From IMG/VR virus record IMGVR_UViG_3300045988_177034: 64,000 nt of DNA; one strand, written 5' to 3'. The notes below the pieces were generated by a model. It saw only the letters and a program-made list of their open reading frames with translations. It searched no databases and was not told the origin of the DNA. This DNA is from a virus. This document shows, piece after piece, positions 1,243 through 38,900 of the stretch. The stretch's first letter is position 1. The number at the start of each line of letters is the position of its first letter. The translations under genes and the position numbers were made by a program.

Positions 1243-1279
1243 CGCAAAAAATAGCGGCCATCTCTAACGAGATGGTCGC
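1243..1279 (-). terminator. intrinsic-terminator-like hairpin (CCATCTC-GTTA-GAGATGG stem plus T6) lying in the 5' leader between promoter and ribosome-binding site
   Basis: minus-strand read gcgaCCATCTCgttaGAGATGGccgcTATTTTTTgcg; sits downstream of promoter 1351-1378 and upstream of the start at 1225. Confidence 0.5.
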
Positions 1280-1350
1280 AATGTAACTTGATTTTAAATT
1301 AAGATAATAGTAGCTAACAAATAGCGCTTTTTATTTATCTTAGTGCTTTT

Positions 1351-1378
1351 ATTGTAGCTACTTTGCAGCAGTTTGCAA
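1351..1378 (-). promoter_or_regulatory. family-1 conserved promoter: TTGCAA - 16 nt (ACTGCTGCAAAGTAGC) - TACAAT
   Basis: -35 TTGCAA at 1373-1378 and -10 TACAAT at 1351-1356 (minus strand), exact 16-nt spacer; 7 near-identical copies in the window. Confidence 0.6.
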
Positions 1379-1391
1379 GAACTGTATCCTC

Positions 1392-2798
1392 TTAGACATG
1401 TTCAGGCAACCACTGCTGTGGGTAGGTTCGAAGTTTGTCCCGTGGCACGCAATCGTTCAGGGCGGAGTTTTCAGCAAGCGCCATGTCGATGATGTAATAA
1501 TCATCACCATTGCGCATCACATCAATACTCCACTGTCCTACCAGTTCGACAGCGGGAAGAATCTTCTTGATTTCATCCAAAATCATCCTAGCACTGTCAT
1601 CATATCGAGACTGCAGGATATCCTCGTGCATCTGATAGATGACATAGTCGTGGCGTTCCTGCGGTGTGCTTGCGTTTTTGAACTTACCCTTCATCACATC
1701 GGCTCGCCAATAAGGACTGATACCAAGCACCTCATCAGCGTCGAAATCGACGAATACGCGGTACTCAGTATGCAGCGGCAAACCGTTGTAGATGGTCGGG
1801 TTGTGTTCCTTGTCCTTGATATATTCCCTGAGCACCCACTCGTTTGTTGTATTAGCACCATAGAAGCAGGCATTATTCAACGGCGAAGCCATAGAACAGG
1901 TCAGATGATTCAGGAACAGGAAATACTCGCCCATCTCATTGATTTCCTTTGGGTCATGGATATGAGCGTTGCGAAACTCATACTTGGAAGAATAAGTTCC
2001 GGTCTTGATGAAGTAATCCTCGTGCTCATCCAGCTTGAATATCCGCTTGCAATAACGGTTCACGATTTCCTTGGTTACGGGATTCAGGGTTTCAAAACCA
2101 AGGCGAGTGAGCTGCAGCATCGGCAGCGGAACACGCAAAATCTTGGTATCAGGAATCCTGAAGAATTTGTTCCCGTACAACGCTTTTGCCAGCGGCGGAA
2201 GCCAGAATCCCATCGTGTTGGGATTCATTTCGAGCATCTGGTAGGTGAAGTCGTCGAGGTCAAGAATATCAAGACCCTGACGGAACTGGTTGTAGTAGAA
2301 CTTTTTCGTGCGGTCATCGCGTGCATCCTTGTACTCGGCGTAATTCTGAAGCAGAATCTTATACGACGGCTCCGAAATATCGACCTTCACGAGATTTCCT
2401 GTCAGCTGAGGTCTGAGCTCTTCCGGGTATTTTTTCAGGTCATCGTTCGTTACCGTTACAGCGTATCGAGATGCCGCATAGTTCACATAGTATCCGCCGC
2501 GTTTTTCGTTGTAGATGTACAGGCGAGTACCATCTGTTAACTCACCTACGATACGGTCGATAAGCGCTTCGAGGTCCCGTGTAAACGGCACCCTCTTGTC
2601 GAGCATAGCCTTGACAGTAGCGGTATCCCACTGTAAAAAGTTCTCGGATAATGCTCCGCTTTCCAGAACCTGTTTTTTATAGGCGTCCTCAAACGCTTTG
2701 AGGGCGTCAGGGCTGGTTTTCAGCATTGCGGCAAGTTCTTCGTAGGAAAACGATTTATCTTCCTTTTTGGTCATCATTTTACCGATTTTGGCAATCAT
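1392..2798 (-). CDS. putative ATP-grasp-fold enzyme (468 aa)
   Basis: AGGAGG ribosome-binding site 10 nt upstream; motifs EYRVFVDFD and YYIIDMALAENS (E-x-N) resemble the ATP-grasp C-terminal half; assignment is tentative. Confidence 0.55.
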   Translation of the reverse strand: MIAKIGKMMTKKEDKSFSYEELAAMLKTSPDALKAFEDAYKKQVLESGALSENFLQWDTATVKAMLDKRVPFTRDLEALIDRIVGELTDGTRLYIYNEKRGGYYVNYAASRYAVTVTNDDLKKYPEELRPQLTGNLVKVDISEPSYKILLQNYAEYKDARDDRTKKFYYNQFRQGLDILDLDDFTYQMLEMNPNTMGFWLPPLAKALYGNKFFRIPDTKILRVPLPMLQLTRLGFETLNPVTKEIVNRYCKRIFKLDEHEDYFIKTGTYSSKYEFRNAHIHDPKEINEMGEYFLFLNHLTCSMASPLNNACFYGANTTNEWVLREYIKDKEHNPTIYNGLPLHTEYRVFVDFDADEVLGISPYWRADVMKGKFKNASTPQERHDYVIYQMHEDILQSRYDDSARMILDEIKKILPAVELVGQWSIDVMRNGDDYYIIDMALAENSALNDCVPRDKLRTYPQQWLPEHV

Positions 2799-2824
2799 AT
2801 TTTAGATTTCCTCCTTTTTGGGAA

Positions 2825-3850
2825 TCAGGTGTTTTCAAAATCCGGATTCTTCCAAATCAACTTATTCCCGTAATAGACTTCGGGAATGTACTTGATGGGA
2901 ATTCTGCGATTGTCTTCGAGTTGCGAATCGTTGTTCGCGATAAACTCCTCGATGCGATTTTCTTCACTGCGCGGGGTGATGTTGCAAGTCGAGAAACCTC
3001 CACCGTACAGGATATCACTGTTCATCATACCTTTGACCGGATACTTTACTTCGGTCGTTTTACCGTTGATGTTCAGGACAAGGCGAACGGTTTTGTATTG
3101 CTTAGCAAGTTCCACAAGAAGCTTGAACATGATTTCCTGAGTGTTCGGACTATTGTACTTTCTCATATACTCTTCCGTCAACTCTTCCACCACAGCCAAT
3201 GTAATCCCGTATAGGCGTCCAGACCGCCCGGAATTTGCCTTTTTGATTTTCTCCATCGTCCGTTCAGCCCAGCCGGTTGGATTAGCAAGATAATCCACTA
3301 CCAGTTCATCGGCATTTGTGGATGTCAGGCCAAAGCAAGACCCATTTCCAATCTCATCGACAATGCTGTCAATAGGGCTGCGATAATTCTTATGCTCATT
3401 TATTATGCGACAGAAAGCGTTCTGTCGTGCTATCTTGTCGTAATAACCGCCCTTGAGAATTTTCTTCTTGTCTTCTTCCGTCACATTCTCTCGGAACATA
3501 TCGAACAGCTTCTGTGCCATTTCCTCTGTGACAGAATCCGAGGTAAAAGAAGAACGGCAGAAAATCGTTTTGAAGTCCTGTGTTTCATTGACGGTTTTGG
3601 CATTGTCGACAACGAGGCAAAGGAAGCGTATCTCCTGATTGAATGTTACGGGTTTCTTTTCCAAGGTTCCATAAAACCGCTGCCCGTACAAGGCATCTAC
3701 CTTGTGCTCGCCATTGGCGAGCGGCACACGAATGAAACGGTAGTAGCGCCCGGACGGTTTTCCGGTATCGGGAATTGTGTTGCCTTCGAACACGGATGCG
3801 CCGGATTTGATAGCCTGCTCAAAATCCTCACGAGTTAAATTGATAGTCAT
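2825..3850 (-). CDS. hypothetical protein (341 aa; start MTINLTRE)
   Basis: ORF 2825..3901 trimmed to the ATG at 3850, which has an AAGGAAG ribosome-binding site; 30-nt gap to the upstream gene. Confidence 0.6.
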   Translation of the reverse strand: MTINLTREDFEQAIKSGASVFEGNTIPDTGKPSGRYYRFIRVPLANGEHKVDALYGQRFYGTLEKKPVTFNQEIRFLCLVVDNAKTVNETQDFKTIFCRSSFTSDSVTEEMAQKLFDMFRENVTEEDKKKILKGGYYDKIARQNAFCRIINEHKNYRSPIDSIVDEIGNGSCFGLTSTNADELVVDYLANPTGWAERTMEKIKKANSGRSGRLYGITLAVVEELTEEYMRKYNSPNTQEIMFKLLVELAKQYKTVRLVLNINGKTTEVKYPVKGMMNSDILYGGGFSTCNITPRSEENRIEEFIANNDSQLEDNRRIPIKYIPEVYYGNKLIWKNPDFENT

Positions 3851-3879
3851 AATTTCTTCCTTTCTGTTTTTATTATTTT

Positions 3880-4665
3880 TTAGCTGTTTTCTTCGATGCA
3901 CAATTTGCTGCTACGAATGTTTTCCAACCATTTTTCATCCATAACATTGCCAATACGATACTTCCTCTGGGATTCATAGGACCAGTCACAACCGACGACA
4001 ACATCACCGATGGCATTCAGATACAGTTCTCCATCAGTGATATTGATTCCGGCTTCATTTCTCGGTTTACAATCTCTCTCATATTCAATCACAAGTTCCG
4101 AAACTATAGGTTCTCTCTTTAGAATCTGATTTGCGTTGATAGTTTTGGCACGACCCTCGTTAATGAGATATTGCTTGCGAAAATCCGTTACTTTATCATT
4201 ACGATTATATCTCAAACCGCTAAGAATACTCGCACTTTCGCGGGGAATTTCTTCATGAAAATCATCGCTGCTGATACAAAGACCACACGAATAGTCATCC
4301 TTGTCATCGCAATAATTCCACCATTCGAGGCTCGCCAAAGCGAGTTCTACCATCTTATCGACGGCTTTCCCGTTGGTTACCATATAAAAACTCCCAACGG
4401 AAATGTTTCGCTCTCTTACGGCGTTCAAAGTATAGCGGATAGCAGGAATATTCAAAGAAATTTCTCCACCCGTAAAGGTCAAGGAACTGATGTATCCTGC
4501 ATTAGCAAAACTGTCAAGAAACGCATCGATATATCTTTCCTGAATATCGACCGCCTCCGCATCACCACGCAAACAATGCGCACAGCACATATTACAGCGA
4601 CGAGTAACCTCAATTACCACATCACACGCGCTCGAAATATACATTCTATTTACTCCTTTCATCAA
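3880..4665 (-). CDS. radical SAM enzyme (MoaA/viperin-like core, 261 aa)
   Basis: CX3CX2C motif (RRCNMCCAHC) near the N-terminus, GGE motif (TFTGGEIS), TNG motif, ISSDDFHEE (resembles ISxDSxxEE of the MoaA/viperin clade), extra Cys C119/C127/C130/C233; start codon overlaps the upstream stop (ATGA). Confidence 0.8.
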   Translation of the reverse strand: MMKGVNRMYISSACDVVIEVTRRCNMCCAHCLRGDAEAVDIQERYIDAFLDSFANAGYISSLTFTGGEISLNIPAIRYTLNAVRERNISVGSFYMVTNGKAVDKMVELALASLEWWNYCDDKDDYSCGLCISSDDFHEEIPRESASILSGLRYNRNDKVTDFRKQYLINEGRAKTINANQILKREPIVSELVIEYERDCKPRNEAGINITDGELYLNAIGDVVVGCDWSYESQRKYRIGNVMDEKWLENIRSSKLCIEENS

Positions 4666-4970
4666 TTCTCGTCCGCAAAGCTCTCATTGCGGTCAACGAT
4701 GATATCCACATCCAGTGGTGTAATTTTACCCAGACCGTAATTCAAGAAGAACGAGCCGGGAATGTCATCGACATCGCCCCAGTTCCAGCAACCACAGTTG
4801 ATTTCAAGCTGTCGTTTGCCTTCGTCCGTCTTGAGATAATCTTTGATTGCGCCGCGCAGGACGCTTTCCGGGTCATTGATTTGCTCCGGATTATAGCTAA
4901 ACTGAATCAGTGTGCATTCCACTGCACGGTCAACAATCTCATTAGCAACAATTGTAAAAACCTTTGTCAT
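4662..4970 (-). CDS. small hypothetical protein (102 aa, MTKVFTIVANEIV...), translationally coupled to the radical SAM gene
   Basis: GGAGG ribosome-binding site 6 nt upstream of ATG 4970; stop overlaps the radical SAM start; contains CGCWNWGD. Confidence 0.55.
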   Translation of the reverse strand: MTKVFTIVANEIVDRAVECTLIQFSYNPEQINDPESVLRGAIKDYLKTDEGKRQLEINCGCWNWGDVDDIPGSFFLNYGLGKITPLDVDIIVDRNESFADEN

Positions 4971-4992
4971 AGTAATCCTCCTCAATAAACAG

Positions 4993-5448
4993 TCAGGCAC
5001 AACGAACGCGAATGACATTATCATCATTCGACAAGCAAACAATCACGTCCACATCCGGTCCCTCTTTCTCAAGAGCACCTTCAAGGATTGGCTTGATTTT
5101 GTGCCATTGATTTTCTGTGATTTTACAGCCGGGGCTCATAAGCAGAATATTTGCTTCGGCCAGCTTTGCTTTCATGACCACTTGTAGGAAACAACCGTAT
5201 AAGTATCCGTAATTCACCTTGTTATTTTCAAGACAAATCATATCTGCTATTACGGTCCTTTTATTACCATAGCAGTTCACAACATGTCCCAAGTGATGTT
5301 CAGATTTGTCATACCGTACCTTGGCATCCGGAAACATGCTTTCAATAGATTCGTTTTTGAAAACACCACTGCTATCACAAAAAACACAAACGATATTTTT
5401 GCCGGGAAACTCCTGACTTGATAAACAGCTTTTTGTCTTTTTTATCAA
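4993..5448 (-). CDS. hypothetical protein (151 aa; apparent TTG start, first ATG is at residue 37)
   Basis: ORF track; the frame begins TTG ATA AAA at 5448 with AAGGA 13 nt upstream; start codon uncertain. Confidence 0.45.
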   Translation of the reverse strand: MIKKTKSCLSSQEFPGKNIVCVFCDSSGVFKNESIESMFPDAKVRYDKSEHHLGHVVNCYGNKRTVIADMICLENNKVNYGYLYGCFLQVVMKAKLAEANILLMSPGCKITENQWHKIKPILEGALEKEGPDVDVIVCLSNDDNVIRVRCA

Positions 5449-5474
5449 TTTTTCTTCATCATCCTTTCGGCGAT

Positions 5475-5512
5475 AACAAAAAATACCGCCACCTCTTACG
5501 AGATAGCGGTAT
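5475..5512 (-). terminator. intrinsic-terminator-like hairpin plus T6 in the 5' leader (CTATCTCGTAAGAGGTGG core, related to the 1243-1279 hairpin)
   Basis: minus-strand read aTACCGCtatctcgtaagaggtgGCGGTAttttttgtt; downstream of promoter 5557-5584. Confidence 0.5.
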
Positions 5513-5556
5513 GTTGATTTTGAATTGTAATTGTATTTTATCTATCGAATATACTT

Positions 5557-5584
5557 AGTATATCGATTTTGCAGCAATTTGCAA
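5557..5584 (-). promoter_or_regulatory. family-1 conserved promoter: TTGCAA - 16 nt - TATACT
   Basis: minus-strand read gcgcTTGCAAattgctgcaaaatcgaTATACTaagtatattcgATAGATAAAAT. Confidence 0.55.
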
Positions 5585-5641
5585 GCGCAGCTATTTAGTG
5601 GCGCTTCAACTTTTTTCGGGGGTTTTATTTTTTCGCTTTAC

Positions 5642-6439
5642 TTACAGCAAACTCATCTCTGCACGATATGCATCGGCATCGTAGCCCCAGATATTACAAG
5701 CAAAATCGATTGCTGCGTTACCTTCGCTGGGATAACCGTCGTCAACAAAATCTCCTTTGCAAAGCGCATACCAGCCACAATTACTTCCGATATCCTCATC
5801 CGCATATTTTACACGAATATTGGCGTGTGGAAATTTACGGCTCAGTTCGACAATGGCGCATGTAGGCGTATTCCAAGGAGTCTTAAAGTTAACAGTGATT
5901 TCCGTATCATTTGTTCTACGGATACTCACATCGAAAACATCCCACTTTACGCCCCAGTTTGCGACACGCCAATAATACCACGAGGCATATCCATAGCTTA
6001 CGGCGTTTTCCAATGTACGTTCCGCCACAGCGTCGAACTCCTCGATATTATAGGGGATACGTTTCAGGTTGATGAGTTTGCTATCTTTCACATGTTCCAG
6101 TTTGGAGCGAGCTTCCGCAGCTTCTTTGCAAACACCAACCATATCTGATGCAGTAAGTTTTTCCTTCCTGTGCAGGAGAAAAGTTTCTCTGCAAATAGCC
6201 TTTCTTACGTTTTCCGGATACTTCTCCGGGTCAATTCCGTATTTATTTACGGCCGCCCATGCGAGCATCCTGTCACATGGCGATACGATTTGCAGTGATT
6301 CCGGCATAGGAACAACAGACTGAAGCGAAAAATCTTTTTCGCCATCATCGTCTTTTCCCTTGACACGATTCAGAAAATCCTCCAACTCTGCCTGAGAATT
6401 GAAAGAAACGGACATGATATTCATGATATTGTTTGCCAT
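5642..6439 (-). CDS. Api92/YubB-like protein (DUF1281 ferredoxin-like domain), 265 aa
   Basis: AAGGAG ribosome-binding site 7 nt upstream; motif WRVANWGVKWDV resembles the NWGTKWN signature of DUF1281 proteins found in plasmid leading regions; assignment tentative. Confidence 0.5.
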   Translation of the reverse strand: MANNIMNIMSVSFNSQAELEDFLNRVKGKDDDGEKDFSLQSVVPMPESLQIVSPCDRMLAWAAVNKYGIDPEKYPENVRKAICRETFLLHRKEKLTASDMVGVCKEAAEARSKLEHVKDSKLINLKRIPYNIEEFDAVAERTLENAVSYGYASWYYWRVANWGVKWDVFDVSIRRTNDTEITVNFKTPWNTPTCAIVELSRKFPHANIRVKYADEDIGSNCGWYALCKGDFVDDGYPSEGNAAIDFACNIWGYDADAYRAEMSLL

Positions 6440-6456
6440 TTATTTTCTCCTTTGTC

Positions 6457-6645
6457 TTACGCAGGTATGCGTACGCAAGAATAGTGGCAAGCTCCACAAT
6501 TCAGGAACTTTGCCCGCTTCATCGCCTCATCCAAGCTGAACCGCGTCGCTTCGTTAATGTTGGCAGTATCACTCTTACACTCTACGTAAAAACGCACATC
6601 TCCAAAAAACGGGTCTTTACGGCTTAGCGCATACATATTTTCCAA
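6457..6645 (-). CDS. small hypothetical protein (62 aa), TTG start
   Basis: GAGGAGG ribosome-binding site 7 nt upstream of TTG at 6645; its N-terminal region is duplicated as a degenerate copy at 7161-7230. Confidence 0.4.
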   Translation of the reverse strand: MENMYALSRKDPFFGDVRFYVECKSDTANINEATRFSLDEAMKRAKFLNCGACHYSCVRIPA

Positions 6646-6752
6646 AATAAGTCCTCCTCAAATATACTTCTCTCAGAACTTCTCGAATTCCTCGCTCGGC
6701 ATCTGTACTTTCGCTTCATCCAGCAGTCTTTTGTAGGAATCGCTGGAAACAT
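6553..6752. repeat. direct repeat copy B (200 bp), partner of 7161-7326
   Basis: aligned by eye: cgttaatgttggcagtatcactcttac...ggaatcgctggaaacat against copy A; copy A lacks 35 bp present in B. Confidence 0.7.
6646..6752 (-). pseudogene. remnant of the 3' end of a gene homologous to 7232..7972 (encodes ...VSSDSYKRLLDEAKVQMPSEEFEKF*, no start codon)
   Basis: about 88% identical to 7232-7326; an in-frame TAG lies immediately upstream, so the fragment cannot be translated from a start. Confidence 0.5.
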
Positions 6753-6772
6753 TTCCTTTCTATTTATTTTCA

Positions 6773-7114
6773 TCAAATGATAACGGCTTCCAATGCTACA
6801 GCACCAGACCCAATTTCATCAGCAACTTTTGATGCTGTTGCAAAATCGTTGTGAGCATACGGTCCTTGCGAATCCATATAAGTGACTCGGTAGGCATAAT
6901 CTGGCTCAAATGATGGGCTTACAATAATGTAAATACCAGTGTTTAACTGATATGTGATGGCATCAGCTTTTTCGATTTGAGCGATGATTTCCTTTCGACG
7001 CTTAGCTTCCGACTGCAAGTATTCAGATGCTGCTTCTTTAATAGGGTCACAAAGGAAAATATCGTCTGGATTACCCGTAATCGGGGGTAGGTCACCCGGA
7101 TAATAGGATATCAT
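6773..7114 (-). CDS. hypothetical protein (113 aa), flanked by the direct repeats
   Basis: AAGGAG ribosome-binding site upstream of ATG 7114. Confidence 0.6.
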   Translation of the reverse strand: MISYYPGDLPPITGNPDDIFLCDPIKEAASEYLQSEAKRRKEIIAQIEKADAITYQLNTGIYIIVSPSFEPDYAYRVTYMDSQGPYAHNDFATASKVADEIGSGAVALEAVII

Positions 7115-7160
7115 GCTTTCATCTCCTTCTTTTTGTCTTCAGCGATGACTTTTTGGAACA

Positions 7161-7326
7161 CGTTAATGTTGGTGGTATCGCTCTTACGCTTTACGGCTCA
7201 ACACATACATATTTTCCAAAATAAGTCCTCCTCAAATGTATCTCTCCCAGAACTTTTCGAATTCCTCGCTCGGCATCTGTGCTTCCGTTTCATCCAACAG
7301 TCTTTCGTAAGAATCACTGGAAACAT
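7161..7326. repeat. direct repeat copy A (166 bp), partner of 6553-6752
   Basis: spans the 3' end of gene 7232..7972, the intergenic ribosome-binding site and a truncated start (MYVLSRKA*) of a copy of the 62-aa gene. Confidence 0.7.
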
Positions 7327-7972
7327 CGGTGCCAATAAAATCAGCAACGGCATCATGACCGCGCTGCATCAAGGCGTCTTTCAGAATCGCCCAACGACAT
7401 TCGTGAATGGCATCATCCAGCGTTTTGTTGCCATCAGGCTGCCAATACTCGCCTGTCTGCTGAATTCTATAAAACTCATCCAGCGCATCATCAACATTGT
7501 TTTCGAGAAGAATATCGTCAATAAAATTGACAGGATAATCCTTGCCGTTGATTGTCACTTCTGCATAACTGAAACAGTCGTCGTCACACGGCATTGCTGC
7601 ACAGGTGACATCGAAAATTTCGTGCGTTTTCTTGTTTACCTTGCAAGGCAACTGGAATGTTGCTCCGGACTCGAAGTAAGAAAAGACAACCGCTTCCTCA
7701 ACATCGTTGTCGGGACATTTCGCAGACTGGATGAATTCCGGCATAGACAGCACATCAATACTCTCTCTTCGGTCGCCCATGGCAGGATAAACCTTCATGA
7801 TTGTATAACCATCATGCTGCAGCTTTCGGATAGCACGGCACAGGTCGAGATGCATTTCATGAAGGCTGATGCCACTACCTCGTCCGTCTTTTTTGGTATA
7901 GATTTCGACAACTACATCTTCAGAGGTGGTCTGAACAACATAATAAGTCTTATCATTACAAATCTTAAACAT
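7232..7972 (-). CDS. hypothetical protein (246 aa; start MFKICNDK)
   Basis: ORF 7232..7993 trimmed to the ATG at 7972, which has a GGGAG ribosome-binding site 9 nt upstream. Confidence 0.6.
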   Translation of the reverse strand: MFKICNDKTYYVVQTTSEDVVVEIYTKKDGRGSGISLHEMHLDLCRAIRKLQHDGYTIMKVYPAMGDRRESIDVLSMPEFIQSAKCPDNDVEEAVVFSYFESGATFQLPCKVNKKTHEIFDVTCAAMPCDDDCFSYAEVTINGKDYPVNFIDDILLENNVDDALDEFYRIQQTGEYWQPDGNKTLDDAIHECRWAILKDALMQRGHDAVADFIGTDVSSDSYERLLDETEAQMPSEEFEKFWERYI

Positions 7973-7993
7973 AGCACTTATCTCCCTTCTCAA

Positions 7994-8191
7994 TCAAACA
8001 AAAGCCAGAAAATCGTTGGCCGGAATCTGTCGCTGGGCATCGTAAGCGGTGCCGTAGACATCATCACCCCAACTGATTTGCACATCCTTCGTCCACAGAG
8101 CAAGCTCAGACATTTTTGCTGCCACGGCTTTTGCGGAGCTGCAGATATACTTCTTGACGGCGTTGTTTTCTTTTACGTTAATTGTAAACAT
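7994..8191 (-). CDS. small hypothetical protein (65 aa; start MFTINVKEN)
   Basis: ORF 7994..8275 trimmed to the ATG at 8191 with a GGAGG ribosome-binding site 8 nt upstream; the larger ORF would overlap the leader hairpin. Confidence 0.45.
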   Translation of the reverse strand: MFTINVKENNAVKKYICSSAKAVAAKMSELALWTKDVQISWGDDVYGTAYDAQRQIPANDFLAFV

Positions 8192-8210
8192 TTCAATTTC
8201 CTCCTTAACA

Positions 8211-8243
8211 CAACAAAAAACAGCCATCTCGATTGAGATGGCT
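8211..8243 (-). terminator. intrinsic-terminator-like hairpin (CAGCCATCTC-aatc-GAGATGGCTG plus T6) in the 5' leader
   Basis: minus-strand read gtgCAGCCATCTCaatcGAGATGGCTGttttttgttgtgtt, followed by the AAGGAGG ribosome-binding site and ATG 8191. Confidence 0.5.
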
Positions 8244-8308
8244 GCACGAACAGATTTTGAACTAAAACAAGTCAAGGAATTGATACTTTGATTTATCTTA
8301 GTTCCTTA

Positions 8309-8336
8309 ATTATATCTACTTTGCAGCAATTGACAA
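8309..8336 (-). promoter_or_regulatory. family-1 conserved promoter: TTGTCA - 16 nt - TATAAT
   Basis: minus-strand read ctatcTTGTCAattgctgcaaagtagaTATAATtaaggaactAAGATAAAT. Confidence 0.65.
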
Positions 8337-8366
8337 GATAGCCACAACAGGAATACGGCATCGTAT

Positions 8367-8588
8367 TCACGGTACTTTTTCAACGGCATCTTCACCATAA
8401 ACCACGAACAGACCAGAACCGTTATCCCAGCGAACCATGATACTGCCGGTATCGTCTATACCTGAAACTGTGCCGAGTGTTCCAATAGGCGGAGCCTGAA
8501 TATCATCCATTTTCAGCAGTTTCACGCGTGTTCCGGCTGGATATTCGGCACGGAGCGCAGCAACGATTTCTCGATTTGGAAAAATCAT
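8367..8588 (-). CDS. DUF4314-like small protein (73 aa)
   Basis: GAGGTG ribosome-binding site; motif IMVRWDNGSGLFVVYGED resembles the DUF4314 proteins common on Firmicutes mobile elements; tentative. Confidence 0.5.
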   Translation of the reverse strand: MIFPNREIVAALRAEYPAGTRVKLLKMDDIQAPPIGTLGTVSGIDDTGSIMVRWDNGSGLFVVYGEDAVEKVP

Positions 8589-8604
8589 AAATACACCTCG
8601 CCTC

Positions 8605-9153
8605 TTAGTATGTCACGGTGTCAAAGAACTCCTGACATTCCTCATCGTTCAACACAACACCAAAGTAGGCAACACGCTCGACGGTGGTTTCCCACACCTT
8701 AACGGTACGCGTCATAGGCTGAACGACCCACGAATGCTGTCGCCAAAGGCCATCTTCACTCAGGGCATATCCGGTCGCAATCTGACATCTGCCACGATTT
8801 GCATCCCACAGATAAGCAGCGTTCTGATGGCAACGACAATCTTCGCCCTTCTTCATGTACCTGGAGTTATAAAAAAACTGTCCTCGTTCCAGCACTTTCT
8901 CCGCATCTTCGTCACGAGTATTGAGCAAAACCTCATCGCCACCGAAAGTTAAAATTCTGTCACGCAGAGCACGCAAAGTCTTTTTCATTTCGTTTGTGAG
9001 CCAAGGCGCGGTAGCGTCCTCGTTGTACAGCTGCATCGCCTCTACTCGTTTTTTCCAGTCCTCACTCATCGGATTCCACTTGATAGGGTTTGCAACCATA
9101 TCAGGAGAGGTCATGGGTGTTTTGGCATTCCAACTGAATTTCTTATTTGCCAT
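8605..9153 (-). CDS. hypothetical protein (182 aa)
   Basis: AAAGGAG ribosome-binding site; a 60-bp degenerate copy of an internal segment recurs at about 9384-9442. Confidence 0.65.
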   Translation of the reverse strand: MANKKFSWNAKTPMTSPDMVANPIKWNPMSEDWKKRVEAMQLYNEDATAPWLTNEMKKTLRALRDRILTFGGDEVLLNTRDEDAEKVLERGQFFYNSRYMKKGEDCRCHQNAAYLWDANRGRCQIATGYALSEDGLWRQHSWVVQPMTRTVKVWETTVERVAYFGVVLNDEECQEFFDTVTY

Positions 9154-9167
9154 CGTAATACTCCTTT

Positions 9168-9202
9168 CGAAAAACCCGCTTACCAGTAGAGGTAAGCGGG
9201 TT
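9168..9202 (-). terminator. intrinsic terminator (AACCCGCTTACC-tctact-GGTAAGCGGGTT plus T5) immediately upstream of the ribosome-binding site of gene 8605..9153
   Basis: perfect 12-bp stem followed by TTTTTCG on the minus strand. Confidence 0.6.
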
Positions 9203-9254
9203 ATATTTTATTTATGCGAGCATGGGATATATTTCTTTTTTGCCACCCACATAT

Positions 9255-9289
9255 TTCAATCTAACGCAACCCATGAGGGTTGCAACAGC
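9255..9289. repeat. 35-bp repeat copy 1, TTCAATCTAACGCAACCCATGAGGGTTGCAACAGC, with internal palindrome GCAACCC-N4-GGGTTGC
   Basis: direct repeat of 9445-9479 with about 5 mismatches. Confidence 0.6.
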
Positions 9290-9444
9290 CCCTTCTTAAA
9301 AACTCATTCACTTCTATTTGTACAAGATAGAAACGACCTTTCATCGCACGGTTTAAACCGTGGGTTCTCTTAGTCTGCCTTTATAAGCAGTGTTCTGATA
9401 ACAACGGCAACTTTCGCCATTCTTCATGTATTTGGAGCCGTAAT

Positions 9445-9479
9445 TTCAATCAAACGCAACCCGCATGGGTTGCAACAGC
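9445..9479. repeat. 35-bp repeat copy 2, TTCAATCAAACGCAACCCGCATGGGTTGCAACAGC
   Basis: direct repeat of 9255-9289; lies in the 340-bp non-coding region 9203-9542. Confidence 0.6.
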
Positions 9480-9542
9480 AAACTTGCACAAACGAAGCGA
9501 CAAGTTGTCATACATTTTGTACAATGTTTGTCTGCTTTTATT

Positions 9543-9839
9543 TCATCCCCACACTTCAGTGACTTTTCTGGGGATTCCGTGCTTGTCGATTTGCCGTCGA
9601 TAAATCGTGAACTTGCTCTTGGGATGAGCATTCACGTAATCGTTTCTTGCGACATCGGTGTTCGCAATCAGCAGATTTTTATCAGCAATAAGAACGCTTT
9701 CCCATCCAGAATCGAGAAGCGTACTGGCAACATCCTTGAAAGATACGTCTGCAGGCGTATCGCACTTACAAACCCCTCGTGCGATAGGATGCGCAGTGGC
9801 AATGATTTTTGCTGCCGTCATCACAGTCTCGTAACTCAT
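9543..9839 (-). CDS. hypothetical protein (98 aa)
   Basis: GGAGG ribosome-binding site upstream of ATG 9839. Confidence 0.55.
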   Translation of the reverse strand: MSYETVMTAAKIIATAHPIARGVCKCDTPADVSFKDVASTLLDSGWESVLIADKNLLIANTDVARNDYVNAHPKSKFTIYRRQIDKHGIPRKVTEVWG

Positions 9840-9851
9840 AGTGTCCTCCTA

Positions 9852-10103
9852 TCACGCCACCTCGAAATACTTTTCGACATCGCTGTTGATAGAACGCGCA
9901 GGAACACCCTTGGTCTTCTCACTGTAGTAGCCACGCTTTTTCAGCGTGTTCTTAACAATAGAAATGCTCTTGTCGCTGCGCATGGTACGCTTTCTCTTTT
10001 CGATGCGTGCAGAACGAATGCGCTTTTCGTACTTCTGCATACGAACAGCGTCCATAATGATAGGAGCAGTAGTCTCCGCGACATACTCATTAAAAGTTTT
10101 CAT
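9852..10103 (-). CDS. hypothetical basic protein (83 aa; start MKTFNEY)
   Basis: GGAGGA ribosome-binding site 9 nt upstream of ATG 10103. Confidence 0.5.
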   Translation of the reverse strand: MKTFNEYVAETTAPIIMDAVRMQKYEKRIRSARIEKRKRTMRSDKSISIVKNTLKKRGYYSEKTKGVPARSINSDVEKYFEVA

Positions 10104-10135
10104 ATTCACATATCCTCCGTAATATATTATTTTTC

Positions 10136-10174
10136 TAAATAAAAAAGGCAGCTATTTTCTCAAAAATAGCTACC
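10136..10174 (-). terminator. intrinsic-terminator-like hairpin plus T6 in the 5' leader of gene 9852..10103
   Basis: minus-strand read GGTAGCTATTTTtgagAAAATAGCTGCCttttttattt; lies between promoter 10267-10294 and the ribosome-binding site. Confidence 0.5.
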
Positions 10175-10266
10175 TTTAGTACATTGTGATTGGCGATAAT
10201 TCAATCATGCACGCCCATAAAACTCTGGTGCGATGCATTGTGTGATTTTATTTATCGGATAACTAT

Positions 10267-10294
10267 ATATTATTAACTTTGCAGCAATTTGCAA
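10267..10294 (-). promoter_or_regulatory. family-1 conserved promoter: TTGCAA - 16 nt - TAATAT
   Basis: minus-strand read tgtaCTTGCAAattgctgcaaagttaaTAATATatagttatccGATAAAT. Confidence 0.6.
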
Positions 10295-10306
10295 GTACAG
10301 GATACA

Positions 10307-10340
10307 ATAAAAAGCGCCTCCCGTATTACGGGGAAGCGCC
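10307..10340 (-). terminator. strong intrinsic terminator (GGCGCTTCCCCG-tatta-CGGGGAGGCGC plus T5) after gene 10351..10950
   Basis: 11-bp GC-rich stem followed by TTTTTATTG on the minus strand, between the stop at 10351 and the -35 at 10294. Confidence 0.7.
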
Positions 10341-10350
10341 TTAGTGTTAT

Positions 10351-10950
10351 TTATTCTTTGTTATCCGAAGGAATTTTCGGAGACTTCTTCTTCTCAACGA
10401 AAGCATCAATCGTTCGGCCGAAACGATTAAGAAGCATTGCGCCAAGATAAAGAATGATGCCGCTAATCATGATACCAACATCAAGCGTCTCAAATCCTGC
10501 GAAACTCTTGCAATAAATAGAACTGACTGCGAGAGCGCCAAGCGTTGGCAGAGAAGCAATCGTTACCGTGAGTGCCGCATACACAACACTATTCAGAACA
10601 GTACCAATGCTTGCAATGATGCCGCGCTTTTTAAAAGTGCGCTGCTTATCGTAGGACATCTGATAAGCCCCGATAAGACTTGGTTCACGAATAATGTCGC
10701 GCAGATGCAGCAGGCACCACGCCAAAACAGCACACCCGATGCCGCAGCCGACCTTATAGGCACTCATGCGAGAACCCCACAGGTCATTTGCGTTGGCGGG
10801 AACGACGAACGCCAGAATGTTGAACAGGACGGCAAACAAGACGAACATTGCCATGTGGGGATTCTTGGCAGTGTTGCGAGCCTCGTTCTTTGCCTTACTT
10901 GTGATTTCCTCGGTCTGATTGTGAATTTTCACATTGAGAATCTTTTCCAT
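10351..10950 (-). CDS. integral membrane protein (199 aa, about 4 predicted transmembrane helices)
   Basis: AAAGGAAAGG ribosome-binding site; long hydrophobic segments; no motif recognised. Confidence 0.6.
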   Translation of the reverse strand: MEKILNVKIHNQTEEITSKAKNEARNTAKNPHMAMFVLFAVLFNILAFVVPANANDLWGSRMSAYKVGCGIGCAVLAWCLLHLRDIIREPSLIGAYQMSYDKQRTFKKRGIIASIGTVLNSVVYAALTVTIASLPTLGALAVSSIYCKSFAGFETLDVGIMISGIILYLGAMLLNRFGRTIDAFVEKKKSPKIPSDNKE

Positions 10951-11071
10951 TTTTACCTTTCCTTTCTTGCGAACGATTTAGTTATAAATCGTTTTTTAGT
11001 CGTGATAGTGATGCGAAATACCGTATATGATTGCGAGCGCTAATGCAATGTAGATATAAAGATATCCCTTT

Positions 11072-11182
11072 TCAATCAGCCTCAATGATTCCGTTCCAGT
11101 CGAGAGCGGCGATGAAGCTGACTCCCATGGTGAAAATCCACAAAAACGCGGCAACGAGAACGATACTGTCAAGCACATTCAT
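11072..11182 (-). CDS. small hydrophobic peptide (36 aa, MNVLDSIVLVAAFLWIFTMGVSFIAALDWNGIIEAD)
   Basis: GGAGG ribosome-binding site 8 nt upstream of ATG 11182; I prefer this to the overlapping 60-aa ORF 10996..11178, which has no ribosome-binding site. Confidence 0.35.
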   Translation of the reverse strand: MNVLDSIVLVAAFLWIFTMGVSFIAALDWNGIIEAD

Positions 11183-11233
11183 AGTAAATACCTCCATAGT
11201 TTAAAGAGTTGTAAATATCGGACATCTATATAA

Positions 11234-11271
11234 ACAGCAAAAAGCCGCCAATGGGACAATCCACTGGCGGC
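11234..11271 (-). terminator. intrinsic-terminator-like hairpin (GCCGCCAGTGG-attgtc-CCATTGGCGGC plus T5); also the likely terminator of the sec-sortase operon
   Basis: lies downstream of sortase gene and promoter 11326-11353 and upstream of the small peptide gene. Confidence 0.55.
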
Positions 11272-11325
11272 TCAGTTGCCGATTGCAATAATACAGTTAA
11301 ATCATTTGATTTATGTTATGTCTTA

Positions 11326-11353
11326 ATTATATTAACTTCGCAGCATAATGCAA
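11326..11353 (-). promoter_or_regulatory. family-1 conserved promoter: TTGCAT - 16 nt - TATAAT
   Basis: minus-strand read acacTTGCATtatgctgcgaagttaaTATAATtaagacataacATAAAT. Confidence 0.6.
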
Positions 11354-11360
11354 GTGTTTT

Positions 11361-12332
11361 TTAGAAAATCTGGTCAAGCTTTGCGCATACAATAAAACGA
11401 GTATCGTAATTATCACTGCCGGAACAGGTGGACAAAATCAAGACCTTATCATTCAATCCAACTTCTGTGGCGTACTGATTGTAAGAGTAAGCTTTCATAC
11501 TTGCAATCTCTGTCAGGAAATACGAATCATCCGGATTCGCAATGGTATAACTTGGGTCAATAGGATAATCGGCAACAGCAAAGATTTTCCATCGTGTCTG
11601 CTGTTCACCCAAGGTAAGATAAATATACCGATGTTCCTTTGCAAAGTTGACATCGCGAAAGTATTTCAAAACACTGAATTTCTTGTGCATACTATTTCCG
11701 TTGCTATGTCCAAAAATAACAGTTACTCTGTACATATCGTCAACATTGCTGACATTCCATTCGGAGGGAACAAAATAAGCGCCCCAGATGCTTTCCCTAT
11801 CGAACTCATTGTGAGTCAGGTAATAATCATCGTCTGTGGGATGCTGCAAAATGGGCTCATCTGTAACATCAACGCCGGGAACGGTTAAGTAACCAACGGT
11901 GTTTTTGGAATACGCTGGCTTTGGTGTCGGTTCCGGTTCTGAATCACTCTCACTTGAATTAGAAGACGGGATAAGAATCGAGGGAGTAGAAACAGGTTCT
12001 TCTACATCATCGGAGATGTTTCCTGTCTCATATGCAGGGATATGATAGTAATCATACGCTTTCCATCCAATATAGCCAATCATGGCAATAAGAACGATGC
12101 AGATTACGACCAACAAAACTGTCCAGATGGAAAATCGCCGTTTCTCTTTGTCCTCTGACGCGTCCATCGCATCCATCGATTCATTGTCATCCTCGTCATG
12201 ACTTGCCTTTTGATGAGGGAAGTTTTCACCAGTTCCATCATCCTCATCATTTGGAATGTAATTGTACGCACCAAGTTCCTGCTCGAAATGTTCTTCTTCA
12301 GGCAGCGGTGGAATAATAGGTGTTTTTGCCAT
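11361..12332 (-). CDS. sortase-family transpeptidase (class B-like), 323 aa, with N-terminal membrane anchor
   Basis: catalytic motifs VIFGHS (His), LILSTCS (TLxTC-type Cys) and downstream Arg (YDTRFIV); one N-terminal transmembrane helix after an acidic cytoplasmic stretch; AAGGTGA ribosome-binding site; 12 nt after the upstream gene. Confidence 0.8.
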   Translation of the reverse strand: MAKTPIIPPLPEEEHFEQELGAYNYIPNDEDDGTGENFPHQKASHDEDDNESMDAMDASEDKEKRRFSIWTVLLVVICIVLIAMIGYIGWKAYDYYHIPAYETGNISDDVEEPVSTPSILIPSSNSSESDSEPEPTPKPAYSKNTVGYLTVPGVDVTDEPILQHPTDDDYYLTHNEFDRESIWGAYFVPSEWNVSNVDDMYRVTVIFGHSNGNSMHKKFSVLKYFRDVNFAKEHRYIYLTLGEQQTRWKIFAVADYPIDPSYTIANPDDSYFLTEIASMKAYSYNQYATEVGLNDKVLILSTCSGSDNYDTRFIVCAKLDQIF

Positions 12333-35987: not shown

Positions 35988-38900
35988 TTACTGCTTCTTT
36001 TCCTCGGTTTTATCTTCGGTCTTTTCAGCAGCTTTTTCTTCGCTATCGCCCTTCTTCTTCTTAACGATGACAAATGCGCCAACGCCAATCAGAGCAACAA
36101 CAACGATAACAGGAACGATGATGTCTGCGCCAAAACCAACGCCAGTCTTGTAGTTAACTACAACAGGTGCCGGAGTGGGAGCAGGTTCATTCTTGACTAC
36201 AGGAGTCGGAGTCGGTCTGCTTTCTTCCGGAGGATTCTCCAGCTTAACGCTTGCTACCCGGACATCGCCGTAGTTGCCTGCCTTATCAACTGTACGGGTC
36301 ACAATGTAACCAGTCCAATCGGGGCTCAGCTTGAAGGTAACGTAACCGTTGTCCTTATCAATGTTTGTAACATTGACAGTCTCGAACTTGGTTTCGTCGA
36401 AGGTGTAATCGCCATCAGCACTCTTGGCAATAGCAGAACCATTGACCTTGTAATACTGAATCTTAGCGACACCGGAGTTGTATTCGCCATCAAGAGCGGA
36501 GATAGCAGGAACGGAATCCTTGACCTTTACAACAGGCACGAAGTCGGGGTCTTCGGTATCATCCTTGCCACCGTTTTCGTCGGGAGTAGCAACGACATCG
36601 TTACCGTTTTCATCACCGGTCTCGTCGCCGGTTGTGAAGAGAGCGGGCTTACCATGAGCAATACGAAGCGTAGTGGCTTCGGTCTTGTCATCGGTTGTTT
36701 CGGTCTTCTCGGACTCGCTGGGAACTTTCTCCTCGGTACCGGATTCGGTTTCATCCTTCTTGTCGGAATCTTCCTTCTTATCGGTATCGTCCTTCTTGTC
36801 GTCTTCCTTCTCAGGTGCCTTGCCGGTCTCTTCACCAGTAATGAACACATTGATGGTGCTCTCGAACTTGACGAACTTCTCGTTCAGCAAATCGGTCTTA
36901 TTGGTGGAATCAACCTTATCGGCAGCGAAAGCAGAAGCAACGACAGGAGCTTCGGTATCAACAGATGTGGTGATAGTTCCCATCTCGGTAATGGCACCTG
37001 TCTTCAGGTCAATCAGGTAATAGGTAGAAGTAACCTTCTCACTATTAGCGGAAATGACCATCTTCTCGGCCCACTCAGCATCGGTCAGGGAATCGCTGGT
37101 TCCGATTGCGTAACCCTTAGGAGCGATAACTTCAACCTTAGAGTTGAAGTACAGGCCACTCAGGTCATCAGTCGTCTTCTTGGTAACCTCAACAGGCTTA
37201 CCGGTCTTTTCGTCAGCCACAGTACCAACGATAGTTGCGGGCTCTACATCGGCAAGATGCAGACGCTGAACTTCGAGGTCTCCGGTGGTAGGCAGGTAAT
37301 TGTAGTTGTCGTAAGCGCCGCCAACATACTTGAAAGCGTCCTTCGTCAAGCCAACATTACCGAAGATACCATCGATGCTGGAAGCAACAATGAGTTCGAA
37401 GGAAGGCAGCTTAACGGTTTCAGCAGTCTCGTCGAAAGCGTAACCACTGGTCTTGATTTCGGGAATTTCCGTCTTGGTGCCATACAGCTTGACGACGGGG
37501 TTCGGGTCGAGAGTAACCGTCAGGTCTTTGCGAGCGATAACGAACTGACCATCGGCTTGGTTCTTATCGGCATCAACGACATTGATTGTTACTGCGTAAT
37601 TCTGCTCAACAGCAGCATCGTAATCAGAGGTAACGGTGTAGGTGTAAGTACCAGCGTTCTTGACATTCTCAGTCTTGAACTGGCTGTCGCTCTCCACGCC
37701 GTCATCGCCGCTTGCGATGTCAGGAGTCAGAGTCGCCTTTGCATCAGCAGTCAAGGGAGCAGTCTGTGCATTGTCGGTGGTCTTGTCATTCTCGAAAGGA
37801 GTATAAACAAGTGCCATCTTCAGGCCCAGAGAATCAGGTTTGACAGCTGCACCGTGTGTACCGTCGCCATTGGTGGCAACAGCATTTACGGTGAAGTCGG
37901 GGTTAGTGGTATCGCCATAGACGATATCCTTGGGCTCGGTGACAGTGACTTCGACCAGACGTTCGCCAATGGTATAAACGCCATTAACAATCGTAATCAG
38001 GTAATCGTCATTGTCGTAAGAACCGACCATGTCGTATGCACCGTAATTCTTGACAGATTCGGGCACGCTCTCCGCAACCAGAGAAGCAGCACCGTCAGCA
38101 GACTTCATGGAAATCTCTTCGGCAACCGCATTCTCAACATCCTTCTGAGTGATGCTGATAATAGCTTTCAGGTCATCGCCATTTACGATGGTCTTCTTAT
38201 CGGCATCGCCAGTATAGGTAAGAGTATTGCTCAGTTCAGCCATTTTATTGCCGTAGACAGAACCAACAGTGCCGATGGTCCAAGTCAGAGGACGCTGAGT
38301 GACCGTGTAAGTGCCGTTCATAGCAGTTACCAGATAATCCTGATAAGAAGCCTGACCGACGCGGTGAGCCAGACCGGAGAAGGAAGGAACAATGTCATAG
38401 CCTCCGACATGGCTTGCAGAAGTGACGAGGCACAGGTTCGTGCCTTCCAGAATATCACCATTGACCAGAGCTGCTTTGGCAGTGTCACCAGTGTATTCCA
38501 GAACGTTCACGGTACCGTAATCAGACCAATCTTCAACAGCAACATCGTCGCCATAGATAGAAGTCTGGGGTTTAGCGGTGACAGTGATGGGACGCTTGTC
38601 GATAACAAAATCAACGGGAGCGTAAACAAAGGTGTAGTTGTTTGCTGCGGCATTCTCAACATTTGCAGGAACGACCTTGCCGGTACCAGCGTGAGAAGCT
38701 ACCGTTGCGGGAGCTCCCTCAGCATCGGTAAAGTTGAAGGTCAGGTTTGCAATGCCCAGGACACCAGCATCATCGGGAGTGGTGTTGCCCTTGACGGGTT
38801 TCACAACGAATCCATCGAAAATCAGGTCGTCGCCGGAGAGAACAGGGTTCTCATCGCCGTAAATCTTGCTCTGAGCTGCCAGAGTGACATTCAGAGTAGC

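Follow-up and report, generated by a model that had tools for sequence, protein, structure and literature searches.

Introduction

To our knowledge, antitermination has so far been described mainly at single promoters or in single long operons. At the promoter PR' of bacteriophage lambda, the element bound by the Q protein is located in the promoter spacer, a -10-like hexamer (AACGAT) is present at +1, and the intrinsic terminator tR' lies close downstream, which yields a short RNA and leaves the genes beyond in need of read-through. Here we analyse a stretch of 64,000 nucleotides (nt) from the IMG/VR record IMGVR_UViG_3300045988_177034 (hereafter the window, meaning the whole stretch), in which five intergenic loci combine a putative promoter with a terminator-like hairpin placed in the leader, upstream of the start codon. 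By its gene content the window matches part of a Hodor-type conjugative megaplasmid and is closest to group G2. Hodor plasmids are human-gut conjugative plasmids of more than 300 kb that encode SecY, trigger factor, sortase B, two giant MBG-repeat proteins (about 2642 and more than 7300 amino acids) and CRISPR-Cas of type I-C, and they have been reported from thousands of human-gut samples (PMC12934698).

The Hodor cassettes recall lambda PR'-tR': the spacer of their promoter holds a conserved DNA motif, an intrinsic terminator lies close downstream, and the transcript may open with a hexamer similar to a -10 (TACGAT or TAAGAT at +2/+3), a resemblance that is ambiguous in the window's group. 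They differ in number, since lambda has one such promoter and the replicon studied here about 50, and in setting, a conjugative megaplasmid with Bacillota-like signals and not a lambdoid phage. The PeSL elements of phage T4 are likewise repeated, conserved sigma-70-type promoters with a terminator stem-loop, located in intergenic regions before small open reading frames (ORFs) without assigned function; however, their stem-loop is found within the stretch from -35 to -10 or partly coincides with the -10 (PMC2839356, PMC4122927), so that transcripts escape it, whereas the Hodor hairpin lies downstream of +1, must be transcribed and does not have the position typical of PeSL. Conjugative plasmids found in Gram-positive bacteria offer a third comparison: conAn and the zipper attenuator of the pLS20 family also involve a leader or intra-operon terminator and an expression that needs read-through, but each is a system that exists once, heading a single conjugation operon (PMC8191782, PMC13401043), and conAn2 is a large RNA element (PMC8191782). 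Finally, HK022 put and Tn916 canT are leader elements located between promoter and terminator on mobile elements (PMC11658703).

Five promoter-leader-terminator cassettes in the window

All credible genes of the window are encoded on the minus strand. The five loci, whose coordinates the original prediction had given correctly, are on the same strand and share one order: sigma-70-type promoter, A at the predicted start, leader, hairpin with U-tract, ribosome-binding site and start codon. The promoter, here called family 1, has the layout TTGC-N4-TTGCTGCAAAGT-N3-TAtAmT, and its 19-mer has five matches in the window at three mismatches or fewer, against 0.03 expected by chance. The predicted +1 is always an A, 7 nt downstream of the -10, and opens a leader of 74-123 nt. 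The hairpins (predicted stability -15 to -32 kcal/mol, with 5-6 U directly 3') begin 38-83 nt past this position and are thus situated, as had been proposed, within the transcripts of their own promoters. The parts are as follows.

1378-1351, minus strand: 1.3-kb family-1 promoter (TTGCAA, 16-nt spacer with TGCTGCAAAGT, TACAAT; predicted +1 is the A at 1344)
1344-1328, minus strand: 1.3-kb conserved transcript start, first 17 nt ACTAAGATAAATAAAAA, doubling as the 5' arm of a 5'-terminal stem-loop (1342-1300)
1279-1245, minus strand: 1.3-kb predicted leader terminator (hairpin 1279-1254), GCGACCATCTC-GTTA-GAGATGGCCGC then UAUUUUUUG; the start codon of gene 917-1225 is 20 nt past it
5584-5557, minus strand: 5.5-kb family-1 promoter (predicted +1 at 5550; conserved transcript start 5550-5534, ATTCGATAGATAAAATA)
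5512-5477, minus strand: 5.5-kb predicted leader terminator (hairpin 5512-5483), 13-bp stem ATACCGCTATCTC/GAGGTGGCGGTAT and U6, with the linker motif TTCAAAATC just 5'
8336-8309, minus strand: 8.3-kb family-1 promoter (predicted +1 at 8302; 5'-terminal stem-loop 8303-8260)
8245-8214, minus strand: 8.3-kb predicted leader terminator (hairpin 8245-8220), GCAGCCATCTC-AATC-GAGATGGCTG and U6, then the start codon of gene 7994-8191
10342-10311, minus strand: ordinary operon-end terminator 5' of the 10.2-kb promoter
10294-10267, minus strand: 10.2-kb family-1 promoter (predicted +1 at 10260; transcript start ATCCGATAAATAAAATC; 5' stem-loop 10257-10194)
10177-10135, minus strand: 10.2-kb predicted leader terminator (hairpin 10177-10144), 15-bp A/U-rich stem and U-tract, unlike the CCATCTC family in sequence
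11353-11326, minus strand: 11.3-kb family-1 promoter, diverged (TTGCATTATGCTGCGAAGT..TATAAT; predicted +1 at 11319), starting 8 nt past the stop codon of the sortase-like gene 11361-12332
11273-11237, minus strand: 11.3-kb predicted leader terminator (hairpin 11273-11242), 13-bp G+C-rich stem and U5, of unrelated sequence; a 36-amino-acid ORF begins at 11182
44276-44128, minus strand: sixth unit, with family-1 promoter 44276-44249, hairpin 44170-44128 and U5, then a promoter of another class (family 2, see below) for the gene of a 2647-amino-acid protein
34304-34277, minus strand: exceptional family-1 promoter without conserved transcript start or leader terminator, with a ribosome-binding site directly 3'
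9202-9173, minus strand: intra-operon hairpin with U-tract and without a promoter of its own, just 5' of gene 8605-9153

The sixth unit had been overlooked in the original prediction. In agreement with that prediction, the operon-end terminator at 10342-10311 is the only one found between an upstream stop codon and its promoter; the other four loci have none. The 9.2-kb hairpin was considered as a decayed cassette and rejected, the sequence 5' of it being the 3' remnant of a PIN7 gene present in other variants. The leaders of the window carry no ATG with a ribosome-binding site that could open a leader peptide.

The cassette is plasmid-wide and specific to one promoter class

Family-1 loci were gathered across the element family with a degenerate promoter pattern, leading to about 47 distinct loci. 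In about 45 of them, a hairpin with U-tract (-11 to -32 kcal/mol) is present between promoter and start codon. In a single contig of 346 kb, the region from 23 to 301 kb holds 49 family-1 promoters, which all have the same strand orientation; 46 of them have a leader terminator. The five loci are members of a family of about 50 such units on a plasmid of about 350 kb, and the cassette is plasmid-wide. The hairpin starts 15-162 nt past the -10 across family-1 loci, and the predicted terminated RNAs measure 56-149 nt (median 94).

A second promoter class of the window shows the usual order, terminator first and then promoter, with short 5' untranslated regions (median 35 nt, against 130 nt for family 1):

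17.0, 31.15, 33.05, 34.95 and 35.9 kb, plus two copies that have diverged (25.3 and 44.1 kb), minus strand: family-2 promoters, TTGACY-N14-TGTGGTATAATATA

A leader terminator follows only about 3 of 30 family-2 promoters, and the association with family 1 is highly significant (Fisher p=3e-15).

At least 16 of the approximately 47 family-1 loci have an extra operon-end terminator that abuts the -35 upstream of the promoter, and the start codon closely follows the leader terminator (median 35 nt; no more than 45 nt in 24 of 43). To regard the hairpins as merely displaced terminators of upstream genes is therefore not enough. Moreover, the latter distance leaves no room for another promoter, so that most downstream genes would be reachable only by read-through. 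That the hairpins are ordinary terminators of the upstream genes, with the true promoters of the downstream genes elsewhere, could account for the four window loci that offer no other terminator to the upstream gene. It would also suit the report that trigger factor and sortase B form a separate co-transcribed unit in Hodor (PMC12934698), which fits an end of transcription at 11273-11242. Nevertheless, the additional upstream terminators, the short space past the hairpin, the conserved A at the predicted +1 from which 5' stem-loops begin, and the limitation to one promoter class make this explanation very improbable.

Two further observations concern family 2. These promoters would drive the genes for secretion, ParM-like, flotillin and giant proteins. 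At about 31150-31000 (minus strand), a hairpin with U-tract (GCGCAGAAGAACATCTGTGCG-ATTTTTT) lies about 45 nt past a family-2 promoter, with a further promoter-like site after it, possibly a short RNA unit.

Promoter and transcript start hold the universally conserved parts

An ungapped, promoter-anchored alignment of about 47 paralogues shows information at TTGC, at the spacer sequence TTGCTGCAAAGT, at the -10, at the A located 7 nt downstream and in an A-rich block from +4 to +16. Between the TTGC and TATAMT of the cassette consensus, the spacer holds a near-invariant palindrome, TTGCTGCAA(AGT). The first 17 or so transcribed nt are also near-invariant (consensus AUnAnAAAAAUAAAA), the core of the A-rich block being GATA(A/G)ATAA or AAAAAATAAAA. 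The motif CCGATAA was considered as a sigma-D -10 and rejected by eye, its spacing to a TAAA-like box being wrong.

Polymorphism, expressed as the fraction of variable sites among related genomes and compared between regions by Fisher tests, reveals purifying selection on parts of the cassette. The fraction is 0.061 at codon position 3 and 0.061 in the terminator loops, 0.025 in the middle of the leader, 0.022 in the terminator stems and 0.017 in the promoter, the last figure being biased low because the promoter served as search pattern. It falls to 0.004 at positions +1 to +17 (3/680; p=3.5e-13 against codon position 3).

Downstream of this start the leaders vary. Among 46 leader types in the window's group, about 16 have a 5'-terminal stem-loop that begins at the predicted +1 and shows compensatory and G.U changes, and about 30 have no structure 5' of the terminator. 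The linker motif TTCAAAATC (at most one mismatch) is present in 22 of the 46 leader types, against 1.1 in shuffles, and in 21 of these 22 it is located 10 nt or less 5' of the hairpin, in some cases overlapping the extended stem. The remaining 24 types, including the 10.2- and 11.3-kb loci, have the same architecture without this motif.

The same organization is found in a divergent Hodor group, represented by contigs of 47-48% G+C, one of them of 389 kb, in which a pattern scan retrieved at least 120 loci. The promoter reads TTGMMA..TGCGAAC..TAgAAT, and the transcript opens with GTACGATAGATAMCAT. Next comes a 5' domain whose closing helix is GUACG/CGUAC and whose inner hairpin is variable and shows compensatory changes. 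It is followed by the linker ATTCAYAATYTG, a terminator rich in G+C, a ribosome-binding site and the start codon. Among the matches listed, the terminator is present in 38 of 38 clusters with the TGCGAAC spacer (of 50 pattern matches). The transcript-start core GATAGATAA and the linker are common to both Hodor groups and the promoter spacer differs; the shared core, linker and architecture thus indicate that the cassette is old and has been maintained while its spacer motif diverged.

The conservation of the leaders bears on two alternative explanations. The first, raised in the original prediction, is that each cassette is a short non-coding RNA gene. In the form considered here, the terminated leader RNAs of 56-149 nt would be the product, stable small RNAs acting in trans, and downstream expression a by-product of leakage. 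The predicted RNAs do show the classic layout of small RNAs, with a stem-loop or an A-rich stretch at the 5' end, the linker UUCAAAAUC in single-stranded form and a terminator hairpin. The linker is strongly enriched over shuffled leaders and is matched by a similar one in the divergent group, mid-leader positions are constrained relative to codon position 3, and the 44.2-kb unit has a separate promoter after it. However, a promoter cannot fit in the short interval before most downstream genes, which have no other one, the leaders are highly diverse past +17, and half of them lack the linker motif. Rfam 15 gave no match at gathering score, whether for the window or for related loci totalling 132 kb, and at E<=5 nothing beyond chance-level matches. 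Small RNAs as the sole output of the cassettes are thus improbable.

The second explanation is a passive antitermination of the LicT/RAT or PyrR type, in which an RNA-binding protein would recognize the single-stranded linker (UUCAAAAUC / AUUCAYAAUYUG) and block or promote the hairpin. The position of the motif next to the hairpin and its presence in both Hodor groups are what such a protein would predict. With more than half of the leader types, 10.2 and 11.3 kb included, keeping the architecture without the motif, and only promoter and transcript-start elements being universal, we consider a linker-binding protein quite improbable.

Leader hairpins are selected RNA structures of differing sequence

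The hairpins at 1.3, 5.5 and 8.3 kb share, as had been noticed, the core CYATCTC-N4-GAGRTGG and belong to a family of at least 18 paralogues in which 94.9% of cells are paired. Six compensatory pairs are present in the lower stem, while the upper stem shows wobble changes only (U-A/U-G, on the sense strand only). Compensatory changes and sense-strand wobbles indicate that the hairpin structure is selected on the sense RNA, and the stems are also less polymorphic than the loops.

The further proposal that the shared sequence marks a specially recognized RNA element was not borne out. The 1.3-, 5.5- and 8.3-kb copies are homologous throughout, i.e., in promoter, transcript start, linker and hairpin, and about half of all cassettes, among them those at 10.2 and 11.3 kb, use unrelated hairpins; the sharing therefore reflects paralogy of whole duplicated cassettes and gives no sign of such recognition. 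Leader and operon-end terminators have similar median stabilities (-19.8 and -18.6 kcal/mol) and equal U content, the leader stems being longer and more A/U-rich. Judged by stability, U-tract and selected pairing, the leader hairpins have the features of intrinsic terminators and would be expected to terminate transcription in vivo.

A possible plasmid-wide attenuation regulon

We tentatively favour, at somewhat less than an even chance, the view that the cassettes form a plasmid-wide attenuation regulon, read through by a factor that would be loaded at the promoter or at the transcript start, as with lambda Q. A polymerase starting at a cassette would halt by default after an RNA of 56-149 nt. 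The downstream genes and, elsewhere on the plasmid, CRISPR mini-arrays would be transcribed only by polymerases that pass the terminator. Loading of the putative factor onto the polymerase, at the promoter or over the initial transcribed region, would make the enzyme terminator-resistant, following the logic of lambda Q at PR'-tR', and the approximately 50 units would thereby form one regulon. The broader version, in which a single factor, plasmid-encoded or host-derived, licenses about 50 promoters including the CRISPR mini-array units, with a leader family kept in both Hodor groups, is possible but more doubtful.

This view rests on where conservation is found. The universally conserved elements are limited to the promoter and the transcript start, and their distance to the diverse terminators varies. 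Furthermore, a competing antiterminator fold is not supported: when the 5' arm of the terminator is paired with leader sequence upstream of it, the energy gain is -1.95 kcal/mol, compared with -2.0 when the arms are shuffled and -19.4 when the terminator forms, and a gain of -6 kcal/mol or lower is seen in only 4 of 44 leaders. Attenuation of the riboswitch, T-box or zipper type is therefore excluded, the zipper attenuator working through a competing fold (PMC13401043) that is absent from the Hodor leaders. Conserved parts located at the promoter and start, far from varied terminators, together with the lack of a competing fold, point to control at the start and not at the hairpin. A candidate DNA site for the factor is the near-invariant spacer motif, TGCTGCAAAGT in the window's group and TGCGAAC in the divergent group. 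A pause-like hexamer, TACGAT, is present at +2 in 37 of 38 divergent-group cassettes, although the pattern used for the search already contained this hexamer.

Conditional read-through by an element-encoded antiterminator, in a Q- or put-like manner, had been the other explanation offered in the original prediction. The arrangement is systematic, and such conditional read-through is the best-fitting reading. Its put-like form is unlikely, because put and canT require a folded RNA (PMC11658703) and most leaders in the window's group are unstructured before the terminator. As for the encoding of the factor, the search for an antiterminator gene on the element identified none in the sequence available.

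Several observations weigh against a Q-like regulon. In the window's group, a -10-like hexamer is present in 70% of transcript starts, against 57% of composition-matched shuffles, and in two registers, which makes the pause element ambiguous in comparison with lambda. Pfam and PHROGs searches of the window proteins revealed no sigma, NusG or Q family, and neither did Pfam searches of 112 further ORFs among the 25 of 42 matched families listed. Similarly, phmmer with E. coli NusG, RfaH and RpoD and with lambda Q and N gave no match at E<=1 in about 13,000 ORFs, in which the plasmids are partly covered. Q protein families are mutually unrelated in sequence. For this reason, and because of the partial coverage, the lack of a match to lambda Q is weak negative evidence. 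Sequence searches against PDB with four candidate small or zinc-ribbon proteins yielded no regulator candidate. In addition, a processive factor would make many operon-end terminators located just 5' of the next promoter redundant during induction. Finally, the conserved A-rich start could instead serve promoter escape or 5'-end stability; in about 16 leader types it is the 5' arm of the 5'-terminal stem-loop. The ambiguous pause element and the failure to find relatives of sigma, NusG, RfaH, Q or N are the reasons why we hold the regulon no more firmly.

That these searches found no antiterminator speaks for another explanation. The cassettes could be constitutive attenuators or insulators, made of a strong promoter, perhaps with a global repressor acting at the spacer palindrome, and a terminator passed by a fixed small fraction of polymerases. 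They would damp expression, curb leaky transcription and isolate units, and the repeats would provide homology for gene shuffling, as proposed for T4 PeSL (PMC2839356, PMC4122927). Repeated composite promoter-terminator units indeed precede many small ORFs without assigned function, the palindrome TTGCTGCAA is operator-like, and one variant genome has an extra 138-amino-acid gene whose right junction falls within the promoter -35/spacer. Terminators within Gram-positive conjugation operons have also been proposed to quench spurious transcription (PMC8955417). However, as the leader terminators match the operon-end ones in stability, units such as those of NrdD, ThyX and CRISPR arrays would be largely silenced, and the same damping could be achieved with a weaker promoter. 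Constitutive cassettes also leave unexplained the extreme conservation of +1 to +17 across paralogues, related genomes and both Hodor groups, and we regard them as a rather unlikely solution.

The element and its neighbouring features

The promoter and hairpin motifs recur in IMG/VR contigs of up to 346 kb and in human-gut assemblies of up to 353 kb. Among the proteins encoded in the window are SecY, one that is FKBP/trigger-factor-like, a ParM/Alp7-like actin, Dam and flotillin. The ORF 11361-12332 has no Pfam match and was recognized as sortase-like from a TLxTC-type motif (ILSTC) read directly. Two giant ORFs, 35988-43931 (2647 amino acids) and 44360-63988 (more than 6542 amino acids, running off the window), contain MBG, DUF11, DUF7507 and CARDB repeats and match both giant surface proteins reported for Hodor plasmids. 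The G+C content is about 44% at 1-36 kb and higher, about 50%, at 36-64 kb, where these giant genes lie. Related loci encode NrdD, NAD-dependent ligase, topoisomerase, RecD2- and RecG-like helicases and Cas8c of a type I-C system. IMG/VR matches hinted at a jumbo phage; this phage origin was rejected, a Hodor megaplasmid being preferred. Megablast gave no match in collections of phages and plasmids. A promoter-motif scan of one genome per bacterial species gave chance matches only and found the cassette in no representative genome; a Verrucomicrobia contig with two motif matches, lying in coding sequence, was set aside as chance.

Two type I-C-like CRISPR repeats (GTTGCAACCC-N4-GGGTTGCGTTAGATTGAAAT) are present on the minus strand at 9253-9289 and 9443-9479, 190 nt apart. 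Mini-arrays are numerous in related genomes (loci L095, L100, L106, L115, L116 and others). They comprise 2-5 repeats, the period being about 69 nt, and several are located about 290 nt downstream of a family-1 promoter and leader terminator, on an element that encodes Cas8c. The region 9154-9542 corresponds to a presence/absence polymorphism (compared with L110:1359-2012): other variants carry a PIN7-domain gene, of which the window and L109 keep only the 3' end, together with the two CRISPR-like repeats and other sequence. Between these repeats, 55 nt (9383-9437) are 84% identical to 8812-8866 within gene 8605-9153; the differences are not adenine-specific, and this is therefore no obvious template of a diversity-generating retroelement. 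A conserved element with two small hairpins (CACGGTTTAAACCGTG; TTCTAT..ATAGAA) at about 9365-9300 (minus strand) recurs after another family-1 cassette in the related contig L017.

A direct duplication (86-89% identity; 6615-6752 and 7189-7326, 6552-6586 and 7161-7195) flanks the gene 6773-7114, encoding 113 amino acids, and in a related contig the distance from the 8.3-kb to the 5.5-kb cassette is shorter by about 570 bp. In L109, a rare opposite-strand ORF of 118 amino acids (L109:19643-19999) with a weak Penicillinase_R/BlaI-like match is located between two near-identical family-1 cassettes, beside a CRISPR repeat. A repressor gene is one possibility for this ORF, a spurious call another.

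Implications for Hodor plasmids

Antitermination at promoter-proximal terminators is a known kind of control, and cassettes composed of promoter and terminator are known as well; their replicon-wide combination is new. The paper defining Hodor says nothing on promoters or terminators (PMC12934698), and the presence, on a widespread gut megaplasmid, of about 50 promoters with a shared transcribed start and individual leader terminators, some of them before CRISPR mini-arrays, is undescribed. The cassette gives exact predicted 5' ends, 3' ends and short RNAs, which can be checked in existing paired metatranscriptomes, and the cassettes provide a compact promoter/terminator toolkit and a marker motif for finding Hodor plasmids. 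If the attenuation regulon proposed here is real, dozens of operons of these plasmids would be under one elongation-level switch, a new mode of control.

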